Positions 2-40,004 of a stretch of 64,000 bases of DNA are shown piece by piece. The DNA comes from a candidate division WOR-3 bacterium. Its GTDB lineage: Bacteria; Hydrothermota; Tepidihabitantia; Tepidihabitantales; JBDRVQ01. The first letter of the stretch is position 1. Each line of letters starts with the position of its first letter. Where the stretch lies: contig JBDRVQ010000004.1 of NCBI GenBank assembly GCA_039801905.1, positions 2,332 through 66,331 on the forward strand. Direction: 5' to 3'. Below the pieces are notes generated by a model. That model worked only from the letters and a program-made list of their open reading frames with translations. It was not told the origin of the DNA and ran no database searches. The translations under genes were made by a program, and so were the position numbers.

Positions 2-607
2 GCATTTGGGCGGGGGGAGGATATCCACACCGCAACCGCCAAGGCGATTTTTAAGAGGGAGGAGATTGATGAGAATTTAAGGAGGATGGCGAAGGCGGTC
101 AATTACGGTATAATTTACGGGATGAGTGAGTTTGGTCTGGCGGAAGGGATGAAGATTAGTCGGGAGGAGGCGAAGAGATTTATGGAGGAATACTTTAACC
201 TCTATCCCAAGATAAAAGATTGGCGAGAGAAGATAATTAGGGAGACAAAAGAAAGGGGCTATACCAGAACCCTTTTCGGCCGGATGAGACCCATCTCGGA
301 GATTTTTTCTAATAATAAGACGGAACAAGAACTGGGACAGAGGTTGGCGATAAATTCTACGGTTCAGGGTTCGGCGGCGGATATTATTAAGAAGGCGATG
401 GTTGAGATTTACGAGGAATTGAAGGCAAGAAGATTTCGGGGCGGGATATTGGTTCAGGTGCACGACGAACTCCTTTTTGAGATTGAAGAGGAAAGGATTG
501 AGGAGGCGAAGGAAATAATTAAGGAGAAGATGGAAGGGGTGGTGAAACTAAATTGCCCCTTGGCGGTCAATATCGGTATTGGCAAAAATTGGGACTGCCA
601 CCCTTAA
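2..607 (+). CDS. polA: DNA polymerase I (family A), C-terminal fragment; the 5' end lies outside the window
   Basis: The frame is open from position 2. Family A polymerase motifs are present (DIHTATA, RRMAKAVNYGIIYGMSEFGLA, ILVQVHDELLFE). Stop TAA at 605-607. Confidence 0.9.
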   Translation, partial: AFGRGEDIHTATAKAIFKREEIDENLRRMAKAVNYGIIYGMSEFGLAEGMKISREEAKRFMEEYFNLYPKIKDWREKIIRETKERGYTRTLFGRMRPISEIFSNNKTEQELGQRLAINSTVQGSAADIIKKAMVEIYEELKARRFRGGILVQVHDELLFEIEEERIEEAKEIIKEKMEGVVKLNCPLAVNIGIGKNWDCHP

Positions 608-1913: not shown

Positions 1914-1942
1914 TTGACAAAAAGAGAAAATTTTACTAAACT
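1914..1942 (+). promoter_or_regulatory. Sigma70-like promoter: TTGACA, 17-nt spacer, TAAACT, with the ATG 8 nt downstream (leaderless layout)
   Basis: ttgacaaaaagagaaaattttactaaact, then attaagtt, then the ATG at 1951. No Shine-Dalgarno sequence. Confidence 0.45.
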
Positions 1943-1950
1943 ATTAAGTT

Positions 1951-2325
1951 ATGGACAGTTTAATAAAACTTCTTCTCGCCGCACTCCTCTTCTTCAATTG
2001 TTTCTCCTATGCCCGAAAAGAAGAGAAAACTAATCCGGAAAATTTGCTCTCTCAGGAAACTGATGTCTCAGTCTTAGCAGAAAGATATTGCGAAAAGAAA
2101 AATATCTCTCAGGAACGGCTCGTCTCCTATATCCATTCTTTCATCCCGACGGTGAATACCTGGTCGGATATTAAAAAGATAAGCCCCGGAAGTTGGCCGG
2201 AGGTGGAAAAGAAGGTAGATGCTCTTTTAGCCAAAGAGGGGATGAGGCTTTTTACGGTCTTCAGCACTTGGTTTATTGGTTGGAATTTTGCCTATCTCCT
2301 CTGGCGTTTCGGGACAAAATGGTAA
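1951..2325 (+). CDS. Small secreted or membrane hypothetical protein
   Basis: 124-aa ORF with a hydrophobic N-terminal signal-like segment (LLLAALLFFNCFSYA) and a hydrophobic C-terminal tail. The start is leaderless relative to the promoter. Confidence 0.4.
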   Translation: MDSLIKLLLAALLFFNCFSYARKEEKTNPENLLSQETDVSVLAERYCEKKNISQERLVSYIHSFIPTVNTWSDIKKISPGSWPEVEKKVDALLAKEGMRLFTVFSTWFIGWNFAYLLWRFGTKW

Positions 2326-2368: not shown

Positions 2369-3805
2369 ATGGAAAAGGAGTTAGTCACCTTAGCCTTAGA
2401 GGTGATGGATAAGGAAGGGGTCTCGTATGGTGATTGCCGGTTGGTGAGAATTGAAGAGGAGACAATTTATCAGGAGAACGGGCGGATTGCCACCTTAAAG
2501 AGAGACGAAGACCGGGGGATTGGCATTCGGGTGATTAAGAATGGTGCCTGGGGTTTTGCCGCTACTTCGCGTTTGACCAAAGGGGATGTGATAAGAACTG
2601 CCAAATTGGCAGTCCGGGTGGCGAAGGTCTCCGGTAAACTAAAGGAGAAAGATGTCATTTTGGCGCCCGCGGAGAAGGTTTCGGATACCTATACCACCCC
2701 CATCCAACGCGACCCATTTTCGTTCCCTCTGGAGGAGAAGATTAACCTTCTAATCAATTGCGATGAGATTATGAAAAAGGTGGAGGGGGTGAAGCGCCGA
2801 AGAGGGGAGTTATATTTTTATAAGAAGTTCCAAATTTTTGCCTCTACCGAAGGTTCTTTCATTGAGCAGACAATTTATCATTCCGGTGGCTACATTGAAG
2901 CCCTGGCGGTGAAAGGTAATGTCACCGGGGAGAGGTCTTATCCGGGAATGCGGGGACATTATAAAAGCGCCGGTTATGAGTTTATTGAGGGATTAAAATT
3001 TCCAGAACATGCCCTGAGGGTTGCCGAGGAGGCGGTCGCTTTAACGACCGCTCGGGATTGTCCGGAGATGGTGACCACGGTCATCCTTGATGGGTCAATG
3101 GTGGCAATTCAAGTCCATGAGACGGTTGGCCACCCAACGGAATTGGACCGGGTCTTAGGAACAGAGGTTTCCTTAGCGGGAACGAGCCATTTGACTCCGG
3201 ATAAAAAGGGGAGTTTTAAGTTTGGTAGTGAGATTGTGACAATCACCGCGGATGCGACCATCCCCGGTGGTTTGGGGACATTTGGCTATGATGACGAAGG
3301 GGTGAAGGCGAGTTCCACTTATCTGATTAAAGATGGAATTTTCACCGGTTATCTCACTTCCCGGGAAACGGCGGCGGTTTTTCAAGAGAGAAGCAACGGG
3401 ACAATGCGTGCCACTTCTTGGGCTTTTATCCCCTTAATCCGGATGACCAATATCAATCTCCTGCCCGGAAAGGGAAAATTAGAAGACCTAATTGCGGATA
3501 CGAAGGAAGGAATCTATTTTGAGTCGGCTGGCGCACCGAGTATTGACGATAAGCGATTAAATTATCATATCTCTTCGGAGGTTGGTTGGTTGATTAAAAA
3601 TGGAAAGAAGGTGGAGATGATAAGGCGGCCGGCCTATTCGGGGATTTCTTATGAGATCTGGCGGAATTGTGATGCGATATGCGGCGAAGAGGAATGGGAA
3701 GTTTGGGGTGTGCCGAACTGCGGTAAGGGTGACCCGATGCAGGTGGCTCATGTTGGTCACGGTGCCAGTCCGGCAAGATTCCGTAATATTAAAGTCGGAA
3801 AATGA
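2369..3805 (+). CDS. tldD: TldD-family metalloprotease
   Basis: 478 aa. HETVGHPTELDR HExxxH motif, the GxC...GG family architecture, and AGGAGG 8 nt upstream. Confidence 0.8.
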   Translation: MEKELVTLALEVMDKEGVSYGDCRLVRIEEETIYQENGRIATLKRDEDRGIGIRVIKNGAWGFAATSRLTKGDVIRTAKLAVRVAKVSGKLKEKDVILAPAEKVSDTYTTPIQRDPFSFPLEEKINLLINCDEIMKKVEGVKRRRGELYFYKKFQIFASTEGSFIEQTIYHSGGYIEALAVKGNVTGERSYPGMRGHYKSAGYEFIEGLKFPEHALRVAEEAVALTTARDCPEMVTTVILDGSMVAIQVHETVGHPTELDRVLGTEVSLAGTSHLTPDKKGSFKFGSEIVTITADATIPGGLGTFGYDDEGVKASSTYLIKDGIFTGYLTSRETAAVFQERSNGTMRATSWAFIPLIRMTNINLLPGKGKLEDLIADTKEGIYFESAGAPSIDDKRLNYHISSEVGWLIKNGKKVEMIRRPAYSGISYEIWRNCDAICGEEEWEVWGVPNCGKGDPMQVAHVGHGASPARFRNIKVGK

Positions 3806-3815
3806 GGGGGGAGAG

Positions 3816-5150
3816 ATGATTGACCGGATAAAAACGAAAGAATATTTAGATTTGATTATTAAGAGAAAGGATTTTGACGAGATTGAAGGGGGGCTTTATT
3901 ACTCGGAAAAAGGGACAACCCGTTTTGCCAATTCCATCATCCATCAGAATATGGTAGTGGAAGAACCTTATCTCTGGTTACGGGGAGTGGAGAAGAGAAA
4001 GGTGGCTGGAGTTTCCACCAAGGATTTCCAAAAGGAAGGGATTGAGAAGGCTCTGGTGAAATTAAAAGAGAATCTGAAAGGGATAAAACCGGATAAGGAA
4101 TTTAGGGGTTTACCAGAGCCCCCAAAAGGGATGCGGATAAAGATCACGAGAGAGCCGGAATTTATTTCCCCGGAGGAAAGGGGGAAGGCGGTAGAAAGGA
4201 TTGTTGGGGTTTGTAAAAAGTATAACCTCCAGGCATTCGGCGTGATTCACAATACCCGCATCTCTTTGGGGGTGGCGAATTCCAAAGGGATTTTTAACTA
4301 CGGAATGACGGGAATAAATTTTGTTTCGGTGACGGCAATGGGAGATTCCGCCGCTGGCTACGCGGTGGATATTAGGAAAAAGTTTTCCGAAATTGATTTT
4401 AAGGAATTGGCAGAAGTTGCCTGCGAAAAGGCTTTGCTCTCTAAGAATCCGAGAGAGATTGAGCCGGGAAGATATACTGTCCTTTTGGAAGAACCGGCGG
4501 TGGGGGAGATGCTCTCTTTCTTAGCCTGGCTGGAATTTGGTGCGAAACGTTTCCGAGAGAAGTCTTCTCTCCTTTCCAAAAAGATTGGTAAGGTAATAAC
4601 CGGCAGGAATATCACCATTTACGATGACTGGGCAGAAGAGGGAATGCCCGGTTTTGCCTTTGACTTTGAGGGTTATCCGAAAAAGCAAGTGGTCTTAATT
4701 AAAAATGGAATAGCCAAGGGAGTGGTCTTTGACTCTTTTTACGCCCAACTCCTCAAAAAGAAAAATACGGGACATTCCTTACCCCAACCTTCTCCTTGGG
4801 GACCTTTGCCGGGCAATTTAGTAATAGCAAAAGGTAAGGATAAGAAGGAGAATTTGATCAAGGAGATTGAGAAAGGGATTTTAGTGACGAGGTTTTGGTA
4901 TGTGCGGGTTGTGGATCCGGATAAGACCTTAATCACCGGCATGACCCGGGATGGGACATTTATGATTGAGAAGGGAAAGATTACCTACCCGGTTAAGAAT
5001 ATGCGGTTTGTCGTAAATATCTATGAGACCTTAAGCAAGGTGCGAAAGATTTCTTCTGAGCGGAAACTCTACGGTGAGGATATCTTCTTTGTTTTGGCAC
5101 CCGCGCTTCTGATTGACGAATTTAACTTCGCCTCCAAGACGGAATATTGA
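3816..5150 (+). CDS. pmbA: TldE/PmbA-family protein, partner of TldD
   Basis: The ORF opens at 3651 and overlaps tldD. The ATG at 3816 follows GAGGGGGGAGAG. Size and sequence are typical of the PmbA/TldE fold. Adjacent to TldD. Confidence 0.7.
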   Translation: MIDRIKTKEYLDLIIKRKDFDEIEGGLYYSEKGTTRFANSIIHQNMVVEEPYLWLRGVEKRKVAGVSTKDFQKEGIEKALVKLKENLKGIKPDKEFRGLPEPPKGMRIKITREPEFISPEERGKAVERIVGVCKKYNLQAFGVIHNTRISLGVANSKGIFNYGMTGINFVSVTAMGDSAAGYAVDIRKKFSEIDFKELAEVACEKALLSKNPREIEPGRYTVLLEEPAVGEMLSFLAWLEFGAKRFREKSSLLSKKIGKVITGRNITIYDDWAEEGMPGFAFDFEGYPKKQVVLIKNGIAKGVVFDSFYAQLLKKKNTGHSLPQPSPWGPLPGNLVIAKGKDKKENLIKEIEKGILVTRFWYVRVVDPDKTLITGMTRDGTFMIEKGKITYPVKNMRFVVNIYETLSKVRKISSERKLYGEDIFFVLAPALLIDEFNFASKTEY

Positions 5151-5166
5151 GAGAATGTTAAGACTA

Positions 5167-5194
5167 TTGACAAAAGAAAAAATTTTGCTAAAAT
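5167..5194 (+). promoter_or_regulatory. Sigma70-like promoter for the pseudopilin operon: TTGACA, 16-nt spacer, TAAAAT, with the ATG 7 nt downstream
   Basis: ttgacaaaagaaaaaattttgctaaaat, then ataagtt, then the ATG at 5202. No Shine-Dalgarno sequence. Confidence 0.5.
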
Positions 5195-5201
5195 ATAAGT
5201 T

Positions 5202-5735
5202 ATGAAAAAGAGGAAAGGGTTCACCATTTTGGAGTTAATGGTTGTCATTTTCATTCTGGGCATTCTCCTTTCTATGCAAGTCCCCAACTTCCGGCTGATA
5301 AGAGAAAGGGCAAGACAGACGGCGGTGAAGGCAAATATGCGCTATGTCCAGGTGGCGATTGAAACCTTTTTCTTAGAAAGGGGTCATTACGCGGATGATT
5401 TTTATGAGGATGGCTACGGTTATATCTTCCCGGGTGGGGTCTACGAACAAAAATTGGGAAAGTTTCCTACCAATCCTTACACCGGTCAAGAGATGACCCC
5501 AGAAGATTTTAACGAAGAGGACTACGATAGCAAAGAAGAATGTTCTGATACCCGAGAGGGTGGTCCCAACGATTTATTTGATTACGCCCCCGGTCAGATG
5601 CGCTATGGGGCATATTATCCCCCGGGGATGTCTGAGCCGTCAAATTGGGGATTAGTGGGTTTCAATGGTTTCGGCGCGAGTATTCGTTCCTACACCCCGG
5701 ATGGGGAAGTGGTGATTTTTGTCTTGCATAACTAA
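5202..5735 (+). CDS. Prepilin-type N-terminal cleavage/methylation domain protein (pseudopilin or minor pilin)
   Basis: N-terminus MKKRKGFTILELMVVIFILGIL is a class III signal with G/F cleavage and Glu at +5. Confidence 0.75.
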   Translation: MKKRKGFTILELMVVIFILGILLSMQVPNFRLIRERARQTAVKANMRYVQVAIETFFLERGHYADDFYEDGYGYIFPGGVYEQKLGKFPTNPYTGQEMTPEDFNEEDYDSKEECSDTREGGPNDLFDYAPGQMRYGAYYPPGMSEPSNWGLVGFNGFGASIRSYTPDGEVVIFVLHN

Positions 5736-5737
5736 CT

Positions 5738-6265
5738 ATGAAAAGGAAAGGGTTCACTTTGTTAGAAATTATGATCGTCATCTCCATAATTGGGACCCTC
5801 CTTGCTTTTTTCGTGCCCCCGCTCGTCTCCCGAATCCAGCAGAATGCCCGGATTACCGCGACAAAGCGGAATCTTATGGAACTGCGAAAGGCGATTGTCG
5901 GCAATCCGGAGATTATCGGCGGTGGTCAATATTTAGACTTAGGATTTAAGGGCGATGTGGGCCGTTTGCCTCGTCATTTAATTGAACTCCTTACTAACCG
6001 TCCGGATACAGTGAGAGGATTTGAATATCCAGGAAGGGAATCAATTCCGGCTTGGGACCCTTTCACTAAAAAGGGTTGGCATGGTCCTTATGTGCGGGAT
6101 GATGGCAAATTGGGTTTCTTAGAAGATGCCTGGGGTAATCCGATTCTTTATCACATCTCACCGAGTGGGGAAACGATAGGTTTAAAGAGTGCTGGTCCGG
6201 ATGGTGAGTGGTATCCACCACCAAGCGGCTCAGCCGAGAATGACGATATCATTGTCTTATTTTAA
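5738..6265 (+). CDS. Prepilin-type N-terminal cleavage/methylation domain protein (pseudopilin)
   Basis: N-terminus MKRKGFTLLEIMIVISIIGTL. Confidence 0.75.
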   Translation: MKRKGFTLLEIMIVISIIGTLLAFFVPPLVSRIQQNARITATKRNLMELRKAIVGNPEIIGGGQYLDLGFKGDVGRLPRHLIELLTNRPDTVRGFEYPGRESIPAWDPFTKKGWHGPYVRDDGKLGFLEDAWGNPILYHISPSGETIGLKSAGPDGEWYPPPSGSAENDDIIVLF

Positions 6266-6268
6266 ATA

Positions 6269-7036
6269 ATGAGGAGAGGTGTTACCCTTTTGGAACTTCT
6301 GGTGGTGATGGTGATCATTGGGATTTTGGCTACCGCTGCGGTCAGGACTTGGGATGTGACGATGGAAAAAGGTAGATATGAGGAGACCTTCCGGGAATTG
6401 GAAGAAATCTCTCGGGCGATTGTTGGTGATGAGCGGATTGTTGTTTCCGGAGAAAGGGTAGACTTCGGTTTTGTTGGTGATTGTGGGATGCTGCCGAGGA
6501 ATTTAATTGACTTAGCCCAAAGACCGGATTATGTGGATTCCGCCCTGTGGCGCGGACCCTATGTGAAACCGACCTTTGCCGAAAATCCAAGAAGTTTCCT
6601 CTTTGACGCCTGGGGCGACTCTTATATCTATATTCCGGAAAGTCTCTTCATTAGGAGTTTTGGTGGAGGAAGTGATATTGATTACCGGAGGTGGATAACC
6701 AAGAAATTCGCTACCAGAATTGGTGACCTCTTAAATAACCGAGTTGCTGGAGTTATTGAGGACGCCTTTGGTAATCGGCCCAAAAATAGTGATTTGACAC
6801 ATCTCTCCCTCTATCTCTTTTATCCCTGGCAGGGTCATACCTTAGTGGATTCTATGGAATTTGACCCTTTAAGACCGGGGGAATTTTCTTTTGAACCGGT
6901 GCCGCAGGGGAAGGTGAGATTGGTGGCGGTTTATCGGGGAAGTGTGCCATCCGATTCTATTGACCGCTACCTTACGGTCTATCCGAAGATTGGTAAGCAG
7001 GATTTGATTATTCGGTTTGGTAATGTCCTATTTTAA
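6269..7036 (+). CDS. Prepilin-type N-terminal cleavage/methylation domain protein (pseudopilin)
   Basis: N-terminus MRRGVTLLELLVVMVIIGIL. Paralog of the next gene (both share ...aatatgaggagaggYgttaccc at the start). Confidence 0.7.
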   Translation: MRRGVTLLELLVVMVIIGILATAAVRTWDVTMEKGRYEETFRELEEISRAIVGDERIVVSGERVDFGFVGDCGMLPRNLIDLAQRPDYVDSALWRGPYVKPTFAENPRSFLFDAWGDSYIYIPESLFIRSFGGGSDIDYRRWITKKFATRIGDLLNNRVAGVIEDAFGNRPKNSDLTHLSLYLFYPWQGHTLVDSMEFDPLRPGEFSFEPVPQGKVRLVAVYRGSVPSDSIDRYLTVYPKIGKQDLIIRFGNVLF

Positions 7037-7037
7037 T

Positions 7038-8138
7038 ATGAGGAGAGGCGTTACCCTTTTGGAATTAATCATTGTGATGCTCATCATTGGGGTCTTAGCG
7101 AGTGTTACCCTTTCGGCAATTGACCGGGTTCGGGAAAGAGGTCTTTTTGATGAGACGATGGCGGAGATGAAGGCGATTGTTAAGGCGATTACCGGAGATC
7201 CAGAACTATTGAGCGACGGCAAAAGGATTGATTTTGGTTATGTCGGTGACCTGGGGAAACTGCCGGATAGTTTAGGAGGTCTTATCCGTCCCGAAGGGGA
7301 ATTGTGGAAAGGTCCTTACTATAAGATTAGTTTTAGGGAAGATGAAGAGAGTTATAAGAAGGATGCCTGGGGTAGATATTACCAGTATTCCCCGGAGGAT
7401 TTAACGATAAGGAGTTTTGGTAACGGTCAAGTTACCCTCACCTACCGAATTGCCGATAGTTTATCCGACCTCTTTAATAATACCGTTTACGGTCAGGTCC
7501 TGGATCGGGAAAATACCCCACCTGGAGATTTAGCGGAAAGACTAATTTTGAAAATTACCTATCCCAGAAATGGGGAGATGAGAGAAGATTCAGTCCAGCC
7601 TAACCGGGATGGTTTTTATCAATTTAGCGGTGTACCAATTGGTAGACACTGGTTAAAACTTGTTACCCCTTATGAAACCTTGGGGAAATATGCAATAGTG
7701 ACGCCGAAGTCAAAAGTTCTCGTTGATTTTCGGGTGCCGAGATTATTTAGGGGGAACTTAATTTATCTCTCTTCGGATACCCTAACCTCCTCGGACACAG
7801 TTCTCTTTTGGGTTCATAACTGGACAAAGGATACAATTAAACTGTTTTATCTTAACGTTTTAGATGTGATGATACCCGAGACCGTAGTCTGTTATAATAA
7901 GGTCACGGCTCGGGATTCGGTTTGTTATTTGGGCGATAAGATAAAGGAGGGAGAAATTGCCCAATTTATGGGTGGTGATATTGATACCCTATTGGTCTTT
8001 CCCGAAGAGAGGTTAAAGTTTACGATCGGTAGTTTCACTGATACCTTGACGCCGCCTAATACTAAAAATATGGCAGAGAGGAGAATAAAGATTCGTTTTA
8101 GTGATGGTTCCTTAATTGATTTTAAGGTTGGGGATTAA
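7038..8138 (+). CDS. Large prepilin-type N-terminal domain protein (minor pilin-like, 366 aa)
   Basis: The ORF opens at 7017. The conserved MRRGVTLLELIIVMLIIGVL begins at the ATG at 7038. Confidence 0.65.
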   Translation: MRRGVTLLELIIVMLIIGVLASVTLSAIDRVRERGLFDETMAEMKAIVKAITGDPELLSDGKRIDFGYVGDLGKLPDSLGGLIRPEGELWKGPYYKISFREDEESYKKDAWGRYYQYSPEDLTIRSFGNGQVTLTYRIADSLSDLFNNTVYGQVLDRENTPPGDLAERLILKITYPRNGEMREDSVQPNRDGFYQFSGVPIGRHWLKLVTPYETLGKYAIVTPKSKVLVDFRVPRLFRGNLIYLSSDTLTSSDTVLFWVHNWTKDTIKLFYLNVLDVMIPETVVCYNKVTARDSVCYLGDKIKEGEIAQFMGGDIDTLLVFPEERLKFTIGSFTDTLTPPNTKNMAERRIKIRFSDGSLIDFKVGD

Positions 8139-8163: not shown

Positions 8164-9774
8164 ATGGCTGATTTTAATATTAAGAAGATTTTTAAACCAG
8201 AAGGTAGAGGCGAGTTAAGTATTGATATCGGAACCGGTTCGGTTAAATTCGTTTTGATGGATAAAGGAAGGGTTGTTGATTACGGTTTACGGGAGATTAC
8301 AGAGGTGACCGATGTGCCGGGAGTGATCCGGGATTTATTACGAGATATAAAACCTTCTCAGGTCTATACCTTCGTCTCGGGCCCGGCAGTGAGTATGCGG
8401 CAGGCGCCATTCCCCAGGATGTCAAGGAAAGAGTTGAGAGATTCCATCCTTTTGCGTCTTGACCGCTATTCACCATTTTCTTTAGATGAGGCGATTTTAG
8501 ATTTCCACCCCTTAGGTGTGGTGATGGAAGCAGGCGCTCCACGGGATAATGTGATGGTGATTGCCGCCCGAAAGGATGTGATCTCCGACCACATCTCAAC
8601 GGTGAGGAAGGTTGGTTTGGAGCCGACCGCGATCTCGGTTGTGCCTTTCGCCCTGGCGGGAGCGGTGAGGCAATTTGTGAAACCCCGACGGGAAGAGGTG
8701 ATTTGCGTTTTGGACATCGGCTCGGAATTCACCGATATCGTCTTTATGCGTGGGGAGAATATTGAACTCGCCCGGACGGTGACCGTGGCCGGCAAGAGTA
8801 TTACCGAGGCGATGACCATTTCTATTGCCACAGAGGAAGGGCAACTTTTCCTCACCGCCGAAGAGGCAGAAAGATATAAAAGAGAATACGGTATACCGCC
8901 GGAAGATTCCGAAGACCGCTTACCTTCAGGAATTAAGGTGAAGAGAATTTTCGCGGTGCAGAGGACCGCCTTGGAGCGATTGATCGCGGAATTGGACCGG
9001 AGTATTGATTTCTACAAACGGGAGTTTTCGGTTCCAACCATCTCCCGGATTCTTTTGTGCGGAGGCGGTGCGCTGATGCGGGGATTGCGAGAATATATGG
9101 AAGCTAACCTAAAAATTCCCACTGAGATTTTTGACCCGTTTAAAGCCTATAACCTTTATAAACCCGGGACGAAAGAAGAGATTGGTCCCCGTTTGGTCGC
9201 GGCCCTCGGTTTACACTTTGACCACCGGGCAATTAATCTCTTACCAACCGAACTGAAGGCAAAACGTTATCAGAAGCGGGATATCGCCTTAGTGGTAGGG
9301 ATGATGGTTATCGCCATTCCCATTTTTATCCTTATCTATCTCTTTTTAACAACCCAAGAGGTTGTGGATAAAGGGAAGTTGCGGAGGGTGGAAAAAGAAT
9401 TGAGGGAAGAGGAGAAAATTGCCCAGGAACACCTTGCCCTTTCCAAAAGAGTTTCAGACTTAGAGGCAGAAGGTAAACTTTTACGGAGCATCGTGGGTGA
9501 AGAGGAGATCACCGTTCCTTTCCTAAAATATATCAGTCGAGCTATTCCGAGTAATATCCAACTGACCAGCCTCACTTTTACCGGATTGAAAACAGTGAAG
9601 ATGAAGGGGATTGTGACCGGCTTACCAGAATTTCAGGAGATTGATTTAGCCTCCTTTATGGTTAACCTGGAATTGGGGAAGGAGATGAAAGGGGTAAAAC
9701 TGGTAAGTAAGACGAAGACGATTCTGGAAGGGGAAGAGGTATTGGAATTTGAATTGGAATGTGAAAAGGAGTAG
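8164..9774 (+). CDS. pilM: Type IV pilus assembly protein PilM fused to a PilN-like transmembrane/coiled-coil C-terminal region
   Basis: Actin-like N-terminus (SIDIGTGSVKFVLMD). The C-terminal ~170 aa has one transmembrane helix (ALVVGMMVIAIPIFILIYLF) and a coiled coil. AGGAGGA lies upstream. Confidence 0.7.
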   Translation: MADFNIKKIFKPEGRGELSIDIGTGSVKFVLMDKGRVVDYGLREITEVTDVPGVIRDLLRDIKPSQVYTFVSGPAVSMRQAPFPRMSRKELRDSILLRLDRYSPFSLDEAILDFHPLGVVMEAGAPRDNVMVIAARKDVISDHISTVRKVGLEPTAISVVPFALAGAVRQFVKPRREEVICVLDIGSEFTDIVFMRGENIELARTVTVAGKSITEAMTISIATEEGQLFLTAEEAERYKREYGIPPEDSEDRLPSGIKVKRIFAVQRTALERLIAELDRSIDFYKREFSVPTISRILLCGGGALMRGLREYMEANLKIPTEIFDPFKAYNLYKPGTKEEIGPRLVAALGLHFDHRAINLLPTELKAKRYQKRDIALVVGMMVIAIPIFILIYLFLTTQEVVDKGKLRRVEKELREEEKIAQEHLALSKRVSDLEAEGKLLRSIVGEEEITVPFLKYISRAIPSNIQLTSLTFTGLKTVKMKGIVTGLPEFQEIDLASFMVNLELGKEMKGVKLVSKTKTILEGEEVLEFELECEKE

Positions 9775-9777: not shown

Positions 9778-10353
9778 ATGAATATTAAAGAGAGGGGTGT
9801 TTTGTTAATCGGCATAATCGTTATTATTCTGATCTTTCTTTTCTTTGTCTTTGTCCTCTACCGACCACGCATCAGTTCGCGGATGGCGGTGAATGCGAAA
9901 ATTAAGGAGATGCAGAAAAGGATAAGTGAAATTCGTGCCCTGGCTCGGGAGATTGAGAGATTAAGAATGAAGATTGAGGAGTTGGAGGAGGCAAATCGGA
10001 CCTTTATGGAAAAGGTGGCACCGCGGCGGGCAACCTTAGAATTGGGAAAGAGATTGGCGGAAGAGGCAAAGAGATATAATGTTCGTTTTATCGCGGTTCG
10101 GCCACCTGGACTTGATACCCTTTTAACCCAAGAAACCCCGGAAGTCCCGATCCGACCTCTTCCTTTAGAAGTTACCTGTCAAGGGAAGTATCTGGATATC
10201 GGACATTTTATTGAATCACTAAAAGACTTCCCGTTTTATGTGAAGGTTCACGAATTGGATATGACAAGTAAAGCGGAGTTACGGCCGGAGATTGAAGCGA
10301 AATTACTAATTAATATCTATACCTCCAGTCTCTTGGATAGGAGGGAGATGTGA
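9778..10353 (+). CDS. pilO: PilO-like pilus assembly protein
   Basis: N-terminal transmembrane helix, a coiled coil, and a C-terminal GxY..IG.FIESL...PFYV segment. Position between pilMN and the secretin. Confidence 0.5.
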   Translation: MNIKERGVLLIGIIVIILIFLFFVFVLYRPRISSRMAVNAKIKEMQKRISEIRALAREIERLRMKIEELEEANRTFMEKVAPRRATLELGKRLAEEAKRYNVRFIAVRPPGLDTLLTQETPEVPIRPLPLEVTCQGKYLDIGHFIESLKDFPFYVKVHELDMTSKAELRPEIEAKLLINIYTSSLLDRREM

Positions 10354-12934: not shown

Positions 12935-12949
12935 AGTTATAGGATAAAG

Positions 12950-13708
12950 ATTTCTTTTCTCTTCTTCCTCTTTGGTCTAATTATCGGTAGTTTCCTTAAT
13001 GTTTGTATTTATCGGATACCGAGGAAAATCTCAATAGCCTTTCCTCCTTCCTTCTGTCCGAATTGTAAAAAGAGGATAAGACCTTATGACAATATTCCGG
13101 TATTAAGTTATCTCTTATTGGGAGGTAGGTGTCGCTATTGTCGGAAGAGGATTTCTCCAATTTATCCAATCGTTGAATTCTTAACTGGAATTACTTTCTA
13201 TCTTTTATACTTAAAACTTTCCCTTTCCTTTTCCCTCTTTATCTCCTTGGTCTATTTTTCCCTATTACTGCTCACCGCCTTTTTGGATTGGCAGGAGAAA
13301 GCAACTTATGACCTAATCATCTACTTGGGCGTAATCTTCGGTTTTCTCTTTAACCTCAAAAACCCAATTTTTTCCCTTATTGGAATACTGGTGGGTGCTT
13401 TCACGATTTTTCTCTTTCGACTCTTGGGGTTTCTCTGGCGCAAAAAGGAGATGATGGGAACCGGTGATATATTTTTAGGGGGGATGATTGGTTCTTTATT
13501 GGGTTGGCAATTTACCTTACTGGTAATCTTCCTGGGTGCCTTTTTCGGGGTTTTAATCTCTTCAATCCTTATCGCCTTGAAGGTCTGGAAAAGGGATAGT
13601 TATATACCGTTTTGTAGTTTCTTATCTTTGGCTACTGGTTTGGTCTTTTTCTTTGGGGATAAGATATTAGATCTTTATCTCAATTTTTTTCGCTTCCGGG
13701 CTGGATGA
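12950..13708 (+). CDS. pilD: Prepilin peptidase (A24 family). The start is uncertain because no ATG/GTG/TTG lies in frame between the secretin stop and the conserved N-terminus
   Basis: The translation in the secretin frame continues ...ISFLFFLFGLIIGSFLNVCIYRIP...CPNCKKRIRPYDNIPVLSYLLLGGRCRYC, which is the canonical PilD N-terminus with its zinc-binding CxxC pairs. The ORF caller finds the first ATG only at 13118. Confidence 0.65.
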   Translation: MSFLFFLFGLIIGSFLNVCIYRIPRKISIAFPPSFCPNCKKRIRPYDNIPVLSYLLLGGRCRYCRKRISPIYPIVEFLTGITFYLLYLKLSLSFSLFISLVYFSLLLLTAFLDWQEKATYDLIIYLGVIFGFLFNLKNPIFSLIGILVGAFTIFLFRLLGFLWRKKEMMGTGDIFLGGMIGSLLGWQFTLLVIFLGAFFGVLISSILIALKVWKRDSYIPFCSFLSLATGLVFFFGDKILDLYLNFFRFRAG

Positions 13709-13718: not shown

Positions 13719-16478
13719 TTAGAATTTAATCACCTTCTGCCAAAGGCTACCTTCCTTGGTCTTAATCCGGACGAAGTAGACACCAGCGTTATTTGCCTGC
13801 CAGACGAAGTGGTAGTTTCCCGGATTAGAAATCCCTTCCTGCAATTGGGCAATCTGCCGACCCGTAGCATCATGGATGGAGAGAGAGACTTCGCTTCTCT
13901 TTTTCAATTCGTAGGCGATATTTAAGGATTGGTTAAAGGGATTAGGATAGCAGGAGATTTGGGTTAAATTCTTTAAGGGTGTCTTCTCTTCTTCCATCCC
14001 GACCATTTCGTGGAAGCCGGCATATTTGGCGATATAGTTATTAGGACCGCCTGCCGCCAGTTCCATTATCGTGACCCAGAGGGTAGCATTTCTTGGGTCG
14101 TATTCCACACCGCGGGCGTTATAGAGTTCGGGAATTAAGAAGCGTTGGAGGATGGTGAGATTATCTCGGTTCATCTCGTAGACACCAACACTGTCAAGGG
14201 CGGTGCCTTGGGAGTTGAAGGAGGTATAAACATGGATGAGGGTTGGGAGATTGGGGTTGGAAGGGGTTCTTTCTAAGGCGAGACAGCGGGGACCATAATT
14301 GGCACTTAAAGGAACATTCATTCTTCTTATCTGATTTCCTAAGGTGTCAGTAACATAGATATAACCGGGTAGGGCACCCAAAGCACTTCTGCGGTCTGCC
14401 AGATATAAGATGCGGTTATTCTCATCCCAGGCAAGTCCGGTTGGATAGTCATTAGCCGGGTTACTGAAATATCTGAGAACCGAACCAGTAGCGGATATTT
14501 TATAAACTCTTTTTGTCTGATTGGAAGCAACCCAGAAGGTATTGTCATAGGCACAGTATTTGATATCGGTGCAGGCACTTTCGTTATTTGGGGTTGGGAT
14601 GGTGCCTAAGGGGGTGAGGAGAGAATCGGAGGAGAACATATAGATATTTCTCGCTCGGAAATGGCAGACATAGATTCGGTTATTGGTCGGGTTGTAGGCG
14701 ATACCATAAAGACCAGCAGTGCTCGGCACACCAGATACCTGGGTTGGACCCCATAATCTGGTTCCTGGTTGCTGAACGGGTTGACCAATGGTTAAGGTGA
14801 AGGTTCTGGTCCAGGATGTTTCATTACAGACTAAATAGAGGGTTAAATTGGCGGTATAGCCTCGCGGTGTAGAAGAACTGGCACTTAAAACAAATGGGTC
14901 GGAAAGGTTATTGGTGCTATCATTACCCGGCACATTACCGAAATTGGCAAGAGAGTCAGAGATAGTAAGATATGGGTCATTTTCTCTTAGTGTTCCCCTC
15001 AGATTGGTTGCTTGGATCGCGGTGGTATTTTTTAAGTAGGTGATTAGATTGCCGGTTTCACCTGGGTCAAGCCGACCATTGCCATTTTCACCAGTAATCG
15101 CGGTGCGGGCGAGGATGATATTTGGTTTATTGGCGGGCACCATCGCATCTAAGATCTTCTTGCAATTTAACCTTCCCCAGCCGTAGTTATTATTAGGATA
15201 GGTGCCGCCTTGGGAAGGGCGGTCGGCATTATTGGTGATATAATTAAATGCCTGGTCTGGGGTTAAACTGGGCATCTTTTCCAGCATTAAGGCGACTGCG
15301 CCACCAACATGGGGAGAAGCCATTGAGGTTCCGGACATTGTACCATAACTACCACCAGGAAGAGCGGAACGGACTGTGCCCGGAGCGGAAATCGCGGGAT
15401 TGATTAAGTTCCAATCGCTTCTGGGCCAGTTGGCGGGATTGTTCCAGGGGTCTTGGTTTGGTGCCGGTCCACGGCTGGAATAACTTTCAATATCATCATT
15501 GGAGTTGGTGGCACCAACGCCAATCACGATGGGATAACTCCCTGGAGCATTAGAAGTTCCGGAGGAAGGACCGCTATTGCCAATGGAGGCAACAACAATA
15601 ATGCCAAGATTTCGCAAATTGACAATATAACTCCACCAGGTGGTTGTCGTTCGGCCACTTCCCCAAGAGTTGGAGATGACATTGGGACGACCGGTATTGG
15701 CAAACCAGTTAAAGCAAGCACTTATCCAGGATGCTTGACCAGAACCATTAGCATCAAATGCCTTGGCGCAGATGAAAGTAGCACCCGGGGCAACACCGAT
15801 GTCGTTGGCGAAAGGTCCTAAACCATCACCCCCGGTCATTGTGCCCATGGTGTGGGTGCCGTGACCATTGTCATCATAAGGGGAACTTTGACCATTGACC
15901 GCATCGTACCAGCCATTGGTGGAGCGCCAGCGACCACCAAATGCCGGATGGGTAACTTCAACTCCGGTATCCATATTGGCAACAACCACCCCTTGACCGG
16001 TATAGCCATCCATCCAGCAGGTATCCGCTCTCACTTTGGTGATGTTCCATTCCGGGGTTTCGGTGGCATCTTGCTCGGTTGTCTCCCCGAGCCAGACATC
16101 ATCAAGTTTGACAATGAAGTCATCCATCACAAAGTCAACATCTTCCCGATTGGCTAACTCTCTAATCACTTCTGGGGTTGTCTTTAAGGCGATATCAGAA
16201 ACCAAAGAAAAACATCTTATATCTTCGGCTTTTACAGTTTTGAGATATTCCAAGATGCCTTTCTGCGCTCTTTCGGCAACAAATTTTAAGTATTCAATCT
16301 TTTCGTCATAGGTGGCATCGGGAGGTAAGAGAGAAAGGTCGGCTTGTTCTTTGGTTCGCACGATGATGCCGATCATATCCGAAGGGGAAGCGTTTTTTAA
16401 GATTGCCTCAAGTTCTGGGACAATCCTCCCTGCCCAGAGGCAGGCGGCTAAGAAGAAAAGGATAAATAGCCTTTTCAT
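13719..16478 (-). CDS. S8 subtilisin-family serine peptidase with a T9SS C-terminal sorting domain
   Basis: Catalytic triad motifs DTGVEVTHPAF, HGTHTMGTMTG and GTSMASPHVGG. Signal peptide MKRLFILFFLAACLWAG. C-terminus ...GVYFVRIKTKEGSLWQKVIKF. GGAGG lies upstream. Confidence 0.85.
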   Translation of the reverse strand: MKRLFILFFLAACLWAGRIVPELEAILKNASPSDMIGIIVRTKEQADLSLLPPDATYDEKIEYLKFVAERAQKGILEYLKTVKAEDIRCFSLVSDIALKTTPEVIRELANREDVDFVMDDFIVKLDDVWLGETTEQDATETPEWNITKVRADTCWMDGYTGQGVVVANMDTGVEVTHPAFGGRWRSTNGWYDAVNGQSSPYDDNGHGTHTMGTMTGGDGLGPFANDIGVAPGATFICAKAFDANGSGQASWISACFNWFANTGRPNVISNSWGSGRTTTTWWSYIVNLRNLGIIVVASIGNSGPSSGTSNAPGSYPIVIGVGATNSNDDIESYSSRGPAPNQDPWNNPANWPRSDWNLINPAISAPGTVRSALPGGSYGTMSGTSMASPHVGGAVALMLEKMPSLTPDQAFNYITNNADRPSQGGTYPNNNYGWGRLNCKKILDAMVPANKPNIILARTAITGENGNGRLDPGETGNLITYLKNTTAIQATNLRGTLRENDPYLTISDSLANFGNVPGNDSTNNLSDPFVLSASSSTPRGYTANLTLYLVCNETSWTRTFTLTIGQPVQQPGTRLWGPTQVSGVPSTAGLYGIAYNPTNNRIYVCHFRARNIYMFSSDSLLTPLGTIPTPNNESACTDIKYCAYDNTFWVASNQTKRVYKISATGSVLRYFSNPANDYPTGLAWDENNRILYLADRRSALGALPGYIYVTDTLGNQIRRMNVPLSANYGPRCLALERTPSNPNLPTLIHVYTSFNSQGTALDSVGVYEMNRDNLTILQRFLIPELYNARGVEYDPRNATLWVTIMELAAGGPNNYIAKYAGFHEMVGMEEEKTPLKNLTQISCYPNPFNQSLNIAYELKKRSEVSLSIHDATGRQIAQLQEGISNPGNYHFVWQANNAGVYFVRIKTKEGSLWQKVIKF

Positions 16479-17302: not shown

Positions 17303-17331
17303 TTGACAAAGCCTCAAATGTCAAGTAAAAT
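17303..17331 (+). promoter_or_regulatory. Sigma70-like promoter: TTGACA, 17-nt spacer, TAAAAT, with the ATG 6 nt downstream
   Basis: ttgacaaagcctcaaatgtcaagtaaaat, then agatt, then the ATG at 17337. Confidence 0.5.
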
Positions 17332-17336
17332 AGATT

Positions 17337-18686
17337 ATGAAATCATTTTTGGCCGAGATTTTTACCGGTTTAGATATTGACTATGGTGATATCCGAGTTG
17401 AGGAGAGCGCGGTCTCAAGTATTGTCTTTCGGGGCAAGGAGTTGGACGAATGCCGGCAGAATTTTGAAAAGGGTGGCATCTTACGGCTTTTTAAGAATGG
17501 GAATTGGGTCTCTGCCAGTTTCAATCGGATTGATGAGGGCTTAAAAGAATTGGCGAAGAAGAAGGCAAAGGAGTTAGAACTCTTGCCGCCAAAACGGCTT
17601 TCGCTTTCCCTTCTTCCCAGAATTGAAATTTATGCGGAAAAGCAAAGGGAAGATTCTCTCCCCTTAACGGCAAAGGTAGAATTATTAAGGGGTTATAATG
17701 AGATTCTCCTTCGCTTTCCGGGAATTGTCTCTACTCTTTCTGGTTATGGCGAGCGGGATAAGAAGATTTATTTCTATTCTACGGAGGATAGATACATTGA
17801 AGAGGTAAGTAGATACTTTCGGATTTTTTTACAGGCGATTGCCCGGGATGGCACAAATATCCAGGACTATGCCGAATCTTTTGCCTCCCGAAGAGGGATT
17901 GCGGATTTACAAGGGAAGGAAGAGGTGGTGGAGAAGATTGCCAAGATGGCATTGGATTTATTGAAGGCGGAAAAGGTTGATGCCGGAGTCTATACCTGTG
18001 TCATTGACCCACGCCTGGCTGGAGTTTTTGCCCATGAGGCGTTCGGTCACCTTTCGGAAGCGGACTTTCTCTACACAAACGAAAGGCTGAAGGAGTTATT
18101 GAAGATTGGCACGACCTATGGGGTTTCGGAACTGGCAATTGTTGATGACCCAACGATAAAAGATGAGTGGGGGAGTTATCAATTTGATGATGAAGGGGTA
18201 GAAAGTAGAAGAACTTCTCTCATTCGGGAAGGGAAGATCTCTTCCCATCTCCATTCCAAAGAGACCGCCTCCGCAATGGGTGAGGATTTAACCGGGAATG
18301 CGAGGGCAGTTAGTTATCGCTTCCCACCGATTGTCCGGATGTCTAATACCTTTATTGAACCCCGGGATAAGAAATTGGAGGAGATGATTGGGGAGATTGA
18401 CAATGGGCTCTATGTGGCCGGGACCAGAGGCGGAACGACCGAATTGGAGTTTTTCACCTTCTCTTCCCAATTTGCTTATAAGATTGAGAAGGGAAAGAAG
18501 ACAAAGTTGGTACGCGATGTGATAATTCAGGGGAATATCTTTGAGACTTTAAGGAATATTGATATGATTGGCAATGATTTGATTTTCTGGCCCGGGGGTT
18601 GTGGTAAGGGGGGACAATCGCCTCTGCCCGTCGCGACCGGTGGTCCTCACATCCGGATTAAAAATTGTCTGATTGGAGGAAAATGA
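17337..18686 (+). CDS. TldD-family metalloprotease (second copy)
   Basis: 449 aa. AHEAFGHLSEADFLY HExxxH motif. Same layout as the 2369 gene. Confidence 0.75.
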   Translation: MKSFLAEIFTGLDIDYGDIRVEESAVSSIVFRGKELDECRQNFEKGGILRLFKNGNWVSASFNRIDEGLKELAKKKAKELELLPPKRLSLSLLPRIEIYAEKQREDSLPLTAKVELLRGYNEILLRFPGIVSTLSGYGERDKKIYFYSTEDRYIEEVSRYFRIFLQAIARDGTNIQDYAESFASRRGIADLQGKEEVVEKIAKMALDLLKAEKVDAGVYTCVIDPRLAGVFAHEAFGHLSEADFLYTNERLKELLKIGTTYGVSELAIVDDPTIKDEWGSYQFDDEGVESRRTSLIREGKISSHLHSKETASAMGEDLTGNARAVSYRFPPIVRMSNTFIEPRDKKLEEMIGEIDNGLYVAGTRGGTTELEFFTFSSQFAYKIEKGKKTKLVRDVIIQGNIFETLRNIDMIGNDLIFWPGGCGKGGQSPLPVATGGPHIRIKNCLIGGK

Positions 18687-19987
18687 TGGAAGAGGTTATT
18701 GAGAAATTGAAAGGAAAGGTTGAAGGTTTTGAGATCTTAAAAGACGAAACCTTAACCACCCTCTGTGAATTTCGGGGAGATGAGCCCTATTCCTTGGCGA
18801 CAAAAGAGGAGGAAGGTTTGGGTTTGAGGGTGATCAAGGATGGAAAGTTGGGTTTTGCCAGCACTACGGATGGAAGCCGAATTTCGGAACTGGTGGCATC
18901 CGCGATCCAGACTGCCAATTACGGAGAGAAGGTGAATTTTACTTTTCCGAAGGAAGTTCCTCCGGGAAAGTGCCGACTGGTTAACGAGAAAGTTAAGAAG
19001 ATCTCTTCGGAACAAATCTTCTCTTTGGGAAGGGAGATTATCGCCGAGACGAAAACACGATTTCCCCAATTTAAGATTGACTTAAACTTACACCATACTA
19101 TCTTCCGGCGCCGACTTGTCAACTCCTCCGGATTTATTGGGGAATACGAAAGGGTCTTTTACTCCCTTTCTTTTAGCGGGTTGATTGTGGCAGACGATGG
19201 TTTGATTTGGATTTATGACTATAAGAATCTCTCTTCGGGCGAACCTTTCTCCCTTTCCGAGTTTGTTGATCAGCAGGTCTTTTTAGCCCAGAATTCTTTG
19301 AAGAAGGGGCGCTTAGCGACCAAGACCTATCCGGTAATCTTTGCCCCTTCTTATGGTCTGGTACAATTCTTTTTGCCACTTTTGGTGGGGGTGAACGGGA
19401 AGAATTTTCAGAAGAGGATCACACCCCTCTTGGGTCAGGAAGGGAAAGAGATCGCTTCCCCTTTGCTTTCGGTTTATGATGATGGTCTTTTGGATTACGC
19501 TTCTGGCTCTGCCCCTTTTGATGGGGAAGGGATAGCCAAAAGACAGACGCCTTTAATAGAAAAAGGGGTTTTTAAGAATTTCCTTTTTGACTTGAAGACC
19601 GCTCACCACTCGGGTCGGCAAAGCACCGGGAATGGGGAACGCCATTATAGTAGCGAACCCAACCCCGGTTTGAATAATCTCTTCGTGGCGCCGGGAAAAG
19701 ACGAACTTTCCGAGGCGTTGCGGGAAGTTCAGGAAGGGCTTCTCGTTTATGAGGTAGTAGGGGGAGGGCAGTCAAATCTCCGGGCGGGGGATTTCTCTTT
19801 TAGTGTCGGTTTGGGCTTTAAGATTGAAGATGGGGAGATTAAAGGACGGGTGAAGGATTGTATGCTCGCCGGTAATTTTTATGAGGCACTAAGGAGGATC
19901 TCCCGAGTCGGGAAGGATTTGAAGGATCTGGGCAATTTCTATCTTCCCTTTATCAAATTGGAAGATATGAAAGTGACTACCAAATAA
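18683..19987 (+). CDS. TldE/PmbA-family protein (second copy)
   Basis: The ATG at 18683 overlaps the upstream stop (ATGA), and GGAGGA lies upstream. The ORF opens at a TTG at 18665. Sequence is PmbA-like. Confidence 0.7.
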   Translation: MMEEVIEKLKGKVEGFEILKDETLTTLCEFRGDEPYSLATKEEEGLGLRVIKDGKLGFASTTDGSRISELVASAIQTANYGEKVNFTFPKEVPPGKCRLVNEKVKKISSEQIFSLGREIIAETKTRFPQFKIDLNLHHTIFRRRLVNSSGFIGEYERVFYSLSFSGLIVADDGLIWIYDYKNLSSGEPFSLSEFVDQQVFLAQNSLKKGRLATKTYPVIFAPSYGLVQFFLPLLVGVNGKNFQKRITPLLGQEGKEIASPLLSVYDDGLLDYASGSAPFDGEGIAKRQTPLIEKGVFKNFLFDLKTAHHSGRQSTGNGERHYSSEPNPGLNNLFVAPGKDELSEALREVQEGLLVYEVVGGGQSNLRAGDFSFSVGLGFKIEDGEIKGRVKDCMLAGNFYEALRRISRVGKDLKDLGNFYLPFIKLEDMKVTTK

Positions 19988-37156: not shown

Positions 37157-38559
37157 AAGGTATGGATACTCTTTCCTAAAATTTTTTCTAAGGTCTCGGA
37201 GATGATTTCGGAAAGGGTGGGATGGGGGTGAATTAAGTTCTCAGTCTCTTCTACCTTTATCTTATTCGATAAGAAAAGGGTAATCTCACTAATTAACTCC
37301 GAGGCAAGAGGGGAGAGGAGAGAGAAGCCTAAGATTTCCCCGGTTTCAGAGAGAACCACCTTGGCGAAACCTTCGGTCCGGCCCAAGGTATAGGCGCGAC
37401 CGATAGCACTTAAAGGAACTCGGTAGACTCTTGGGTTTAACCCTTTTTCTTTTGCCTCCCTTTCCGAAAGACCAACTACCGCCACTTCGGGGTCGGTATA
37501 GATGCAATTGGGAATGAATCGCTTATAATCTTTGGGAAAACTTCTCCTTCCCAAGGCGATAATCTCCGCTAATTTTTTTCCTTCAAACATCGCCTTATGG
37601 GCTAAAAGGGGTGGAGAAGAGCAATCACCAATCGCAAAGACATTCTTTAAGTTGGTCTGAAAATTCTCATCGGTGATGATAAATCCCCGGGCATCTTTTT
37701 CTATACCAACTTTTTCTAAGCCTTCGGTATTCGGCTTTCTGCCGATTGCGACCAGGACCTTTTCCGCCTCAAGGCGCAGTTTTTTCCCTTCCCTATCTTT
37801 TATTAAAAAAAGTTTCTCATCTTCTCTGCCCAAAATCTGAGAGGAGAGATAGAATTTTATCCCTTCTTGCTCTAAGATTTTTTGGAGGCGCTGGGCAATC
37901 TCCTCATCAATTCCGGGGAGGATTTGATTTGTAATCTCAATAACTATCACCTCACTTCCCAATCGGGAATAGATGGTTGCCATCTCCAAGCCAATTGCCC
38001 CGGCGCCAACCACCAAAAGGCTCTTAGGAATCTCTTCGGGCTGGAGAAGGAAGTCGGAATTGACTACGCTTTTGCCATCAAAGGGAATTTCTTTTAAGGC
38101 ACTTGGGAGAGAACCGAGGGCTAAGACGATATTTTGGGCGGAGATTACCTCTTTACTATTTTTTAATCTAACCTTCCCTTCACTAATAATCTCTCCCTCT
38201 TCCCGAATCACCTCACAATTTCTCTTTTTTAAGAGGTATTCAATGCCATTGGTGAGCCGATTCACATTTTTGAAGACCCAGCCTCTCATCATCGGGATAT
38301 CAATTGCCGGCGGGGAGAATTTAATACCCGCAGAATCTAACTCCGCACTCCGTCTTAAAATCTCAGTTAAGTGGAGATAGGCTTTGGTTGGGATACAGCC
38401 TAAATTGAGACAGACGCCACCAATCTTTTCCTTTTCAATCAGGGCGACCTTTTTCCCCAATTGACCGGCACGGAGGGCGCAGGTATAACCCGCTGGTCCA
38501 CTCCCGATAATGAGAATATCAAACATAATGAATATTAACGAGAAATTAAAAAGTTGCAA
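37153..38559 (-). CDS. lpdA: Dihydrolipoyl dehydrogenase
   Basis: FAD motif IIGSGPAGY, redox-active disulfide GGVCLNLGCIPTK, NAD motif VVGAGAIGLE, and the C-terminal HPHPTLSE interface. Confidence 0.85.
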   Translation of the reverse strand: MQLFNFSLIFIMFDILIIGSGPAGYTCALRAGQLGKKVALIEKEKIGGVCLNLGCIPTKAYLHLTEILRRSAELDSAGIKFSPPAIDIPMMRGWVFKNVNRLTNGIEYLLKKRNCEVIREEGEIISEGKVRLKNSKEVISAQNIVLALGSLPSALKEIPFDGKSVVNSDFLLQPEEIPKSLLVVGAGAIGLEMATIYSRLGSEVIVIEITNQILPGIDEEIAQRLQKILEQEGIKFYLSSQILGREDEKLFLIKDREGKKLRLEAEKVLVAIGRKPNTEGLEKVGIEKDARGFIITDENFQTNLKNVFAIGDCSSPPLLAHKAMFEGKKLAEIIALGRRSFPKDYKRFIPNCIYTDPEVAVVGLSEREAKEKGLNPRVYRVPLSAIGRAYTLGRTEGFAKVVLSETGEILGFSLLSPLASELISEITLFLSNKIKVEETENLIHPHPTLSEIISETLEKILGKSIHTL

Positions 38560-38947: not shown

Positions 38948-38975
38948 TTGACAAAAGACTTTTCTTGGGTATAAT
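38948..38975 (+). promoter_or_regulatory. Sigma70-like promoter: TTGACA, 16-nt spacer, TATAAT, with the ATG 7 nt downstream
   Basis: ttgacaaaagacttttcttgggtataat, then agaagt, then the ATG at 38982. Confidence 0.5.
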
Positions 38976-38981
38976 AGAAGT

Positions 38982-39782: not shown

Positions 39783-39972
39783 TAGAGGCAGCTAATCTCT
39801 CTTTTTTCTGCTTTCCTTATTAAAGACTCAAAGGTGAGGTTACTCTTTCTTGACTATTTCTCCATTCGGAACCGACCCATCCTGGTGAGCGGCGTAAGCA
39901 CTTCCGATGTTTATTTTGTCGCTGTGGGAGAGGGATAAAGAGAAAATAAGGATTTGCTTTTTGATGTTCTCT

Positions 39973-39999
39973 TGACAAGAAGAAAAAAAGGTTTAAGAT
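39973..39999 (+). promoter_or_regulatory. Sigma70-like promoter: TTGACA, 15-nt spacer, TAAGAT, with the ATG 6 nt downstream
   Basis: ttgacaagaagaaaaaaaggtttaagat, then aagtt, then the ATG at 40005. Confidence 0.35.
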
Positions 40000-40004
40000 A
40001 AGTT

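Follow-up and report, generated by a model that had tools for sequence, protein, structure and literature searches.

The window analysed here, a 64,000-nt stretch of one contig of a WOR-3 bacterium (host phylum Caldifarciminota in the NCBI taxonomy), has a GC content of ~45% and carries several operons whose first ATG lies only a few nucleotides past a strong promoter sequence. At 1914–1953 (+), TTGACA (1914–1919), a 17-nt spacer and TAAACT (1937–1942) are followed after 8 nt by the ATG at 1951, which opens the gene for a small lipoprotein-like protein with a TldD/PmbA pair next in the operon (TldD2/PmbA2); the −35 element at 1914 lies directly against the upstream gene's stop codon. The pilus/pseudopilin operon head at 5167–5204 (+) consists of TTGACA (5167–5172), a 16-nt spacer and a TG-extended −10 element (TGCTAAAAT; hexamer at 5189–5194), with the ATG 7 nt further on at 5202. 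This gene is the first of four prepilin-type genes, which are followed by PilM/N-like genes, a secretin and a prepilin peptidase. A third head, at 17303–17339 (+), combines TTGACA (17303–17308), a 17-nt spacer and TAAAAT (17326–17331) with an ATG after 5 nt at 17337, and serves an operon that encodes TldD, then PmbA, then a LonC-type protease. As a separate observation on the pilus operon, the prepilin peptidase ORF (12935–13708, +) contains no ATG, GTG or TTG before its conserved N-terminal domain; A24_N_bact begins at residue 12 and is followed by Peptidase_A24 (both Pfam). An AGGA directly precedes ~12944–12950, where ATA or ATT offer the only plausible starts, and the gene would either use a non-canonical start codon or owe this to an error in sequencing or assembly.

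We searched both strands of the window for TTGACA-N15–18-TAnnnT-N4–9-ATG and took the expectation from dinucleotide shuffles. There are five exact matches, all on the forward strand, against 0.08 expected, and 0 of 100 shuffles reached five. These are the five strings that an earlier note on this DNA had picked out from the sequence alone (1914–1953, 5167–5204, 17303–17339, 38948–38984 and 39972–40007, the last beginning at 39972 and not at 39973), and together they span TTGACA-N16/17-TAnnnT-N5–8-ATG. Between the −10 hexamer and the ATG lie, in order, 8, 7, 5, 6 and 5 nt, so that the 6–8 nt given in the earlier note fits 1951, 5202 and 38982 whereas 17337 and 40005 fall just below it. Each of the five ATGs is the first possible start codon past an in-frame stop; the competing upstream in-frame start that the earlier note had considered is therefore absent at all of them. 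A longer string had also been described as common to several sites. The sites at 1914 and 5167 do have one, being ~85% identical over ~50 nt that include bases upstream of the −35 element (TTAAGA..TTGACAAAAG..AAAATTTT.C), whereas those at 39972 and 38948 match it only in part. A relaxed consensus promoter scan of the window showed no enrichment (37 matches against 28.4 expected), and for this reason only near-perfect matches are relied on below. Scans of the whole window with Rfam (gathering thresholds) and for tRNAs found nothing, and the sites therefore cannot be put down to an RNA gene or a riboswitch.

At 1951, 5202 and 17337 there is no Shine-Dalgarno (SD) sequence and no other usable in-frame start, and the spacing to the ATG is kept in relatives. 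Several lines of evidence indicate that these are the true N-termini. The 5202 product carries the prepilin motif MKKRKG|FTILE and a Pfam N_methyl domain at residues 1–25, and the cleavage motif fixes the start codon; the public annotation (PGAP) calls the same ATG. At 1951 PGAP likewise agrees, and the orthologue in two close relatives (L083 and L084, 81–82% protein identity) begins at the same place. The N-terminus of the TldD that starts at 17337, MK[SPA]FL[ARK]E, is kept in relatives down to 55% identity. The promoters are conserved along with the starts: L083/L084 have TTGACA-17-TAAGAT-8-ATG at the lipoprotein head and TTGACA-16-TGGTAAAAT-7-ATG at the pilin head, so that relative to the window the geometry is unchanged and the spacers have diverged. 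More distant tldD heads read TTGACA-16-TAAAAT-6-ATG (L006, 72% identity), TTGACA-16-TATGCT-9-ATG (L010, 57%) and TTGACA-17-TATCGT-10-ATG (L007, 58%). On this sequence and comparative evidence, the reading of 1951, 5202 and 17337 as leaderless starts is well supported. Two separate TldD/PmbA pairs lie within 15 kb of each other on the forward strand (2369–5150 and 17337–19987), both in operons headed by promoters of the leaderless type; in L083/L084 the first pair has an SD-led promoter of its own (TTGACA-16-TATGAT-17-ATG), which is not evident in the window.

The remaining two forward-strand sites are of a different kind. The earlier note had described all five heads as lacking an SD, which is true of the three just discussed and not of 38982 and 40005, where a strong SD and an in-frame ATG, both unmentioned, lie downstream. 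The head of a T9SS-sorted protein at 38948–39014 (+) has TTGACA-16-TATAAT (38948–38975) before the ATG at 38982, and a perfect SD (AAGGAGG, 39001–39007) precedes an in-frame ATG 10 codons on, at 39012 (AAGGAGGGGAG-ATG). The latter opens a canonical signal peptide (MLKKLSSIFILLLV...), and PGAP picks 38982 instead. A homologue search with this protein returned only multidomain paralogues that do not cover the N-terminus, and so did not separate 38982 from 39012. Given the position of the signal peptide, leaderless initiation at 38982 is doubtful despite the PGAP call, and the locus is best described as having an ambiguous or dual start. At 39972–40019 (+), TTGACA-16-TAAGAT (39972–39999) precedes an ATG at 40005 that overlaps an SD (GGAGGTG, 40007–40013; overlap ATGGAGGTGTGTATG), with an in-frame ATG 4 codons downstream at 40017 (ATGGAGGTGTGT-ATG). 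The product is a secreted protein annotated as 'zinc protease'-like, with a transglutaminase-domain protein next. Its homologues start, with M[RK]R, where the second ATG lies, and PGAP also picks 40017. In L096 and L104 the arrangement is ATG-GAGGT-N-ATG in frame, in L098 the first ATG is directly followed by TAG, and in L100 a 6-codon mini-ORF (ATG AAA AAT AAA AGG AGG TAA) precedes the SD-led start. The homologue starts and the ATG-TAG of L098 argue against leaderless initiation as the main route for 40005; we favour 40017, on a predicted leader of ~12 nt that would begin with AUG, as the conserved N-terminus. Both 38982 and 40005 are best read as short SD-led leaders with a predicted 5′-terminal AUG.

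In the predicted transcript from 40005 (40005–40049), the SD GGAGGUG and the second AUG are held in a predicted hairpin (−9.1 kcal/mol, z = −2.3; matched by 5 of 200 shuffles). Such a hairpin could shift initiation between the two in-frame AUGs and would favour the 5′-AUG. The ATG-GAGGT-N4–6-ATG arrangement occurs in three lineages, and one may speculate, though we think it improbable, that it represents a conserved dual-entry design for secreted proteins with a 5′-AUG in frame 4–10 codons upstream of the SD-led AUG. If so, 70S initiation without a leader and 30S initiation guided by the SD could both yield one and the same signal-peptide protein, with the route set by the state of the ribosomes or initiation factors.

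Three further heads with the same architecture lie on the reverse strand, which indicates that it is general and untied to secretion. The lpdA-lipB operon head (38524–38559, −) has TTGCAA (38559–38554), a 16-nt spacer, TAATAT (38537–38532) and, 5 nt on, the ATG at 38526 (MFDILIIGSGPAGY); the GxGxxG motif of LpdA (dihydrolipoyl dehydrogenase) falls at residues 8–13 counted from this ATG, and the 457-aa PGAP product begins there too. The head of a sugar transferase/histidine kinase/response regulator operon (47613–47653, −) has TTGACA (47653–47648), a 16-nt spacer, TATCCT (47631–47626) and an ATG after 10 nt at 47615, with no SD and a predicted leader of 0–4 nt; PGAP calls the corresponding 423-aa product and not the 526-aa ORF. 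This promoter stands back to back with a forward-strand TTGACT-16-TATAAT (47660–47687) that serves an SD-led gene at 47707. The head of a DNA methyltransferase gene (52845–52886, −) has TTGACA (52886–52881), a 16-nt spacer, TATAAT (52864–52859) and an ATG after 11 nt at 52847, again without an SD and with a predicted leader of ~4 nt; PGAP agrees with the start. The gene is the first of an island at ~48.1–52.8 kb. This block of small genes (48139–52886, −) also contains an ECF-type sigma factor (50477–51067) and an HTH protein (48139–48639), and is possibly a mobile island or one concerned with defence. Sigma-70 region 2 also occurs in a second protein, encoded at 55074–56144.

Taking these heads together, the −10 box lies ~5–9 nt before the start, as expected of leaderless genes, at 1951, 5202, 17337 and 38526 (8, 7, 5 and 5 nt). 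The 10–11 nt at 47615 and 52847 would imply a leader of 3–4 nt rather than none. Neither an SD nor an alternative start is present at these six, and both are present at 38982 and 40005. The prepilin motif, the TldD N-terminus, the LpdA GxGxxG motif and the PGAP calls, which agree at 6 of 7 sites, place the N-terminus at the promoter-proximal ATG; for 40005 the homologues favour the second ATG. The earlier note had linked the architecture to secreted and pilus proteins. That link is rejected because cytoplasmic enzymes use the same design: TldD (17337) is not predicted to be secreted, and the lpdA, sugar transferase and DNA methyltransferase heads are alike. The architecture is general and independent of secretion.

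Nor is it as systematic as had been proposed, since at no fewer than eight other heads in the window a promoter of this kind is followed by an SD. Their leaders vary: at 54419, 61204 and 47707 they are so short that the transcript would open with the SD, and at 58902, 16478 and ~57470 they measure 45–65 nt. Two further heads, 28521 (TolC) and 60627, show no SD and no full promoter close by. By our estimate, leaderless-type promoters would serve roughly 6–8 of the ~18 assessable operon heads in the window, about a third to a half. The stretch 57600–58900 contains no clean long ORF; a 148-aa reverse-strand fragment (58267–58713) matches LVIVD repeats, adjoins an intact T9SS-sorted LVIVD protein (56307–57518) and is probably a decayed paralogue.

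Most internal genes have SDs of the GGAGG type. The strong AGGAGG sites that the earlier note attributed to genes within the operons are indeed found at eight (3816, 8164, 9778, 10350, 10871, 11354, 18683 and 20001), whereas 5738, 6269, 7040, 35486, 41696 and 45153 lack an SD. Three of these exceptions are pilin genes 2–4 (5738, 6269, 7040), which start 2–4 nt from the previous stop codon or overlap it (5735–5740, 6265–6271 and 7036–7042; TAActATG, TAAataATG); further downstream, PilM, PilN and the secretin are each preceded by a strong SD. This suggests termination–reinitiation coupling within the pilin block. Because several internal genes lack an SD, SD-independent initiation or re-initiation probably occurs in this organism in any case.

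As a control, we counted TTGACA-16..18-TAnnnT sites followed at 4–11 nt by an ATG whose ORF reaches at least 80 aa. The fractions are 7 of 12 in the window and 7 of 14 in WOR-3 relatives, together 14 of 26, against 1 of 29 in DNA from other phyla (629 kb; Fisher p = 2.4e-5). Among the relatives the same architecture also precedes DUF6588 and ArsR genes (L096), an HD-domain gene (L104) and several genes in L102 and L103. In L098 (4523–4641, +) a tRNA-Leu(CAG) gene has its mature 5′ end 7 nt past a TTGACA-16-TATATT promoter, a placement that supports both the promoter function of the motif and the distance to the start of transcription; RNase P would find almost no 5′ leader to cut from the primary transcript.

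The most reasonable explanation, to which we assign a probability of about 0.7, is that ordinary sigma-70-type promoters are placed so that the transcript would begin at or near the AUG, giving leaderless mRNAs. The sequences show the motif positions, their enrichment, the lack of other start codons and the conservation of N-termini and spacing; where transcription starts and how ribosomes are recruited we infer. The promoters would be of the housekeeping (sigma-70) type, with a near-invariant TTGACA, a 16–17-nt spacer and a TAnnnT −10 element, and RNA polymerase would start ~7 nt past the −10, at a purine after a pyrimidine, which would fall at the A of the ATG or within a few nucleotides of it. 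Transcripts from 1951, 5202, 17337, 38526 (−), 47615 (−) and 52847 (−) would then have no 5′ UTR or one of 0–4 nt, and no SD, and a ribosome carrying fMet-tRNA would bind the 5′-terminal AUG; downstream cistrons would be served by SDs or by stop–start coupling. At 38982 and 40005 the transcript would likewise start with AUG, the SD-led start being probably the main one and the 5′-AUG secondary or regulatory.

The base context around these starts is consistent with this proposal. Selection of a transcription start follows a pyrimidine (−1)/purine (+1) rule, and the T that precedes the ATG in 10 of 13 independent sites (p = 3e-4) fits that context. Promoter-proximal starts are all ATG although GTG and TTG were allowed in the scan, which fits the preference for AUG in leaderless translation (PMC9031893); SD-led genes in the window at 10350, 10871 and 30811 use GTG or TTG. 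Among the predicted mRNA 5′ ends the AUG is unpaired in 5 of 6, with no excess structure, and paired in the 47615 fold; apart from 40005 and 47615, folding of the predicted ends gave no signal either way.

The main rival explanation is SD-independent initiation or re-initiation. Here the mRNAs would be leadered, arising from upstream promoters or read-through, and the A/T-rich stretch before the ATG would be an unstructured landing site (of the S1 type or a standby site), or initiation would be coupled to the upstream gene. The promoters at 1914 and 5167 begin 0–17 nt from the upstream stop codon with no terminator between, which speaks against a purely leaderless view; read-through transcripts that carry the 1951 and 5202 cistrons internally, without an SD, are likely to coexist with the shorter ones. 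Pilin genes 2–4 and other internal genes start without an SD, TolC (28521) and 60627 do so without a nearby full promoter, and the tldD orthologues of L008 and L009 lie 42 and 20 nt past their −10 boxes (leaders of ~35 and ~13 nt) with an SD that is weak or absent. As a general account we nevertheless consider this unlikely, as it leaves unexplained the perfect TTGACA at the right spacing from TAnnnT, the narrow 5–8-nt gap that is kept in diverged relatives, the T at −1 and the 14/26 against 1/29 contrast with other phyla.

It could also be that unlike things have been lumped together, some sites being leaderless and others SD-led with an incidental or regulatory 5′-uAUG, so that the recurrence is partly a coincidence of strong promoters. 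Pointing this way are the sites 38982 and 40005, each with a strong SD and an in-frame ATG further on, the homologues that begin at the second ATG, the ATG-TAG of L098 and the mini-ORF of L100; yet this much is already contained in our preferred reading of those two sites, and the idea cannot account for 1951, 5202, 17337 and 38526, which have no SD-led alternative, so as a separate explanation its chances seem to us slim. The slightest chance attaches to the proposal that duplication or mobility of a promoter cassette, or of a regulator site, placed copies of the shared 40–50-nt string before several operons. The ~85% identity of 1914 and 5167 would be expected of such copies, and a repeated promoter-bearing element does exist in L103 (4 copies). 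An alignment of eight sites with their flanks, however, finds similarity confined to the promoter (46% mean column identity) and no homology beyond it, which makes a mobile cassette unlikely; the orthologous promoters of L083/L084 are much less alike and both keep the geometry, and the remaining sites have only the hexamers in common. The L103 element itself, from a more distant relative, lies before different genes (ATCATAGATTTGnnCAAAATT...; 8669–8726, 9341–9397, 9966–10000 and 15191–15223, all +). Two copies carry an identical TTGACA-16-GATAAT promoter 3–7 nt from the start codon and the other two are followed by an SD, a pattern suggestive of a promoter or regulatory cassette present in dispersed copies.

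Leaderless transcripts placed just past a promoter, the reading that we prefer, have close parallels in well-described systems. Bacteroidota-type expression signals comprise −33 TTTG/−7 TAnnTTTG promoters and weak or absent SDs. The WOR-3 organism resembles Bacteroidota in having T9SS C-terminal sorting domains and some genes without an SD, but its promoters are of the E. coli-like TTGACA-16/17-TAnnnT kind and most of its internal genes have GGAGG SDs; Bacteroidota-type non-SD expression was rejected on these grounds. The FCB-group genomes surveyed by GeneMarkS-2 fall mostly in group B, with non-SD ribosome-binding sites (10.1101/193490), and the WOR-3 organism, unlike that majority, does not. 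It is closer to group C of the same survey, in which the −10 box lies 6–8 nt from first-in-operon starts, SD-led internal genes are mixed in and 25–50% of operons are leaderless, mainly in Actinobacteria and Deinococcus-Thermus (10.1101/193490). The 'TA-led' genes of Zheng et al. 2011 have the same signature (PMC3160421). As in these classes, TAnnnT lies ~5–9 nt before the ATG of a first gene that has no SD, internal genes are SD-led, and the estimated fraction of leaderless-type heads, about a third to a half, is comparable with the 25–50% of group C. In Deinococcus, where the signature has been validated experimentally (PMC12340547), the −10 box alone is conserved, whereas the window has a near-invariant TTGACA −35 and often a TG-extended −10. 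On leaderless mRNAs in general, ribosomes with initiator tRNA bind the 5′-terminal AUG directly (review PMC9031893).

The two sites with a second start have another counterpart in the 5′-uAUG mRNAs of E. coli (Beck, Fleming & Janssen 2016; ptrB), in which 70S ribosomes bind the 5′-AUG and which act both leaderless and leadered (PMC4965119). As in that class, the predicted transcripts of 38982/39012 and 40005/40017 would begin with AUG, followed by an SD and a second AUG, and the same holds for the relatives L096 and L104, which have the same design, and L100 with its mini-ORF. They differ from it in that the 5′-AUG in the window shares the frame of the main ORF and lies just 4–10 codons upstream, so that its use would give a short extension of the signal peptide rather than a separate peptide.

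We found no paper on WOR-3/Caldifarciminota that mentions leaderless genes. What the window contains would be a known leaderless mode in a phylum for which we found no report, and it reveals no new mechanism. Its promoter-plus-ATG cassettes could be tried as they are in a heterologous host. For this uncultivated, mostly hot-spring phylum, the consequences concern the annotation of starts and promoters in metagenome-assembled genomes: gene finders that rely only on SDs will shift or extend first-in-operon starts, as at 47615, where the ORF has 526 aa and the product 423 aa; publicly recorded pilin variants of 195 and 200 aa are another example. More broadly, a lineage that combines strong SD usage with frequent leaderless operon heads would be added to a distribution so far dominated by Actinobacteria and Deinococcus-Thermus.
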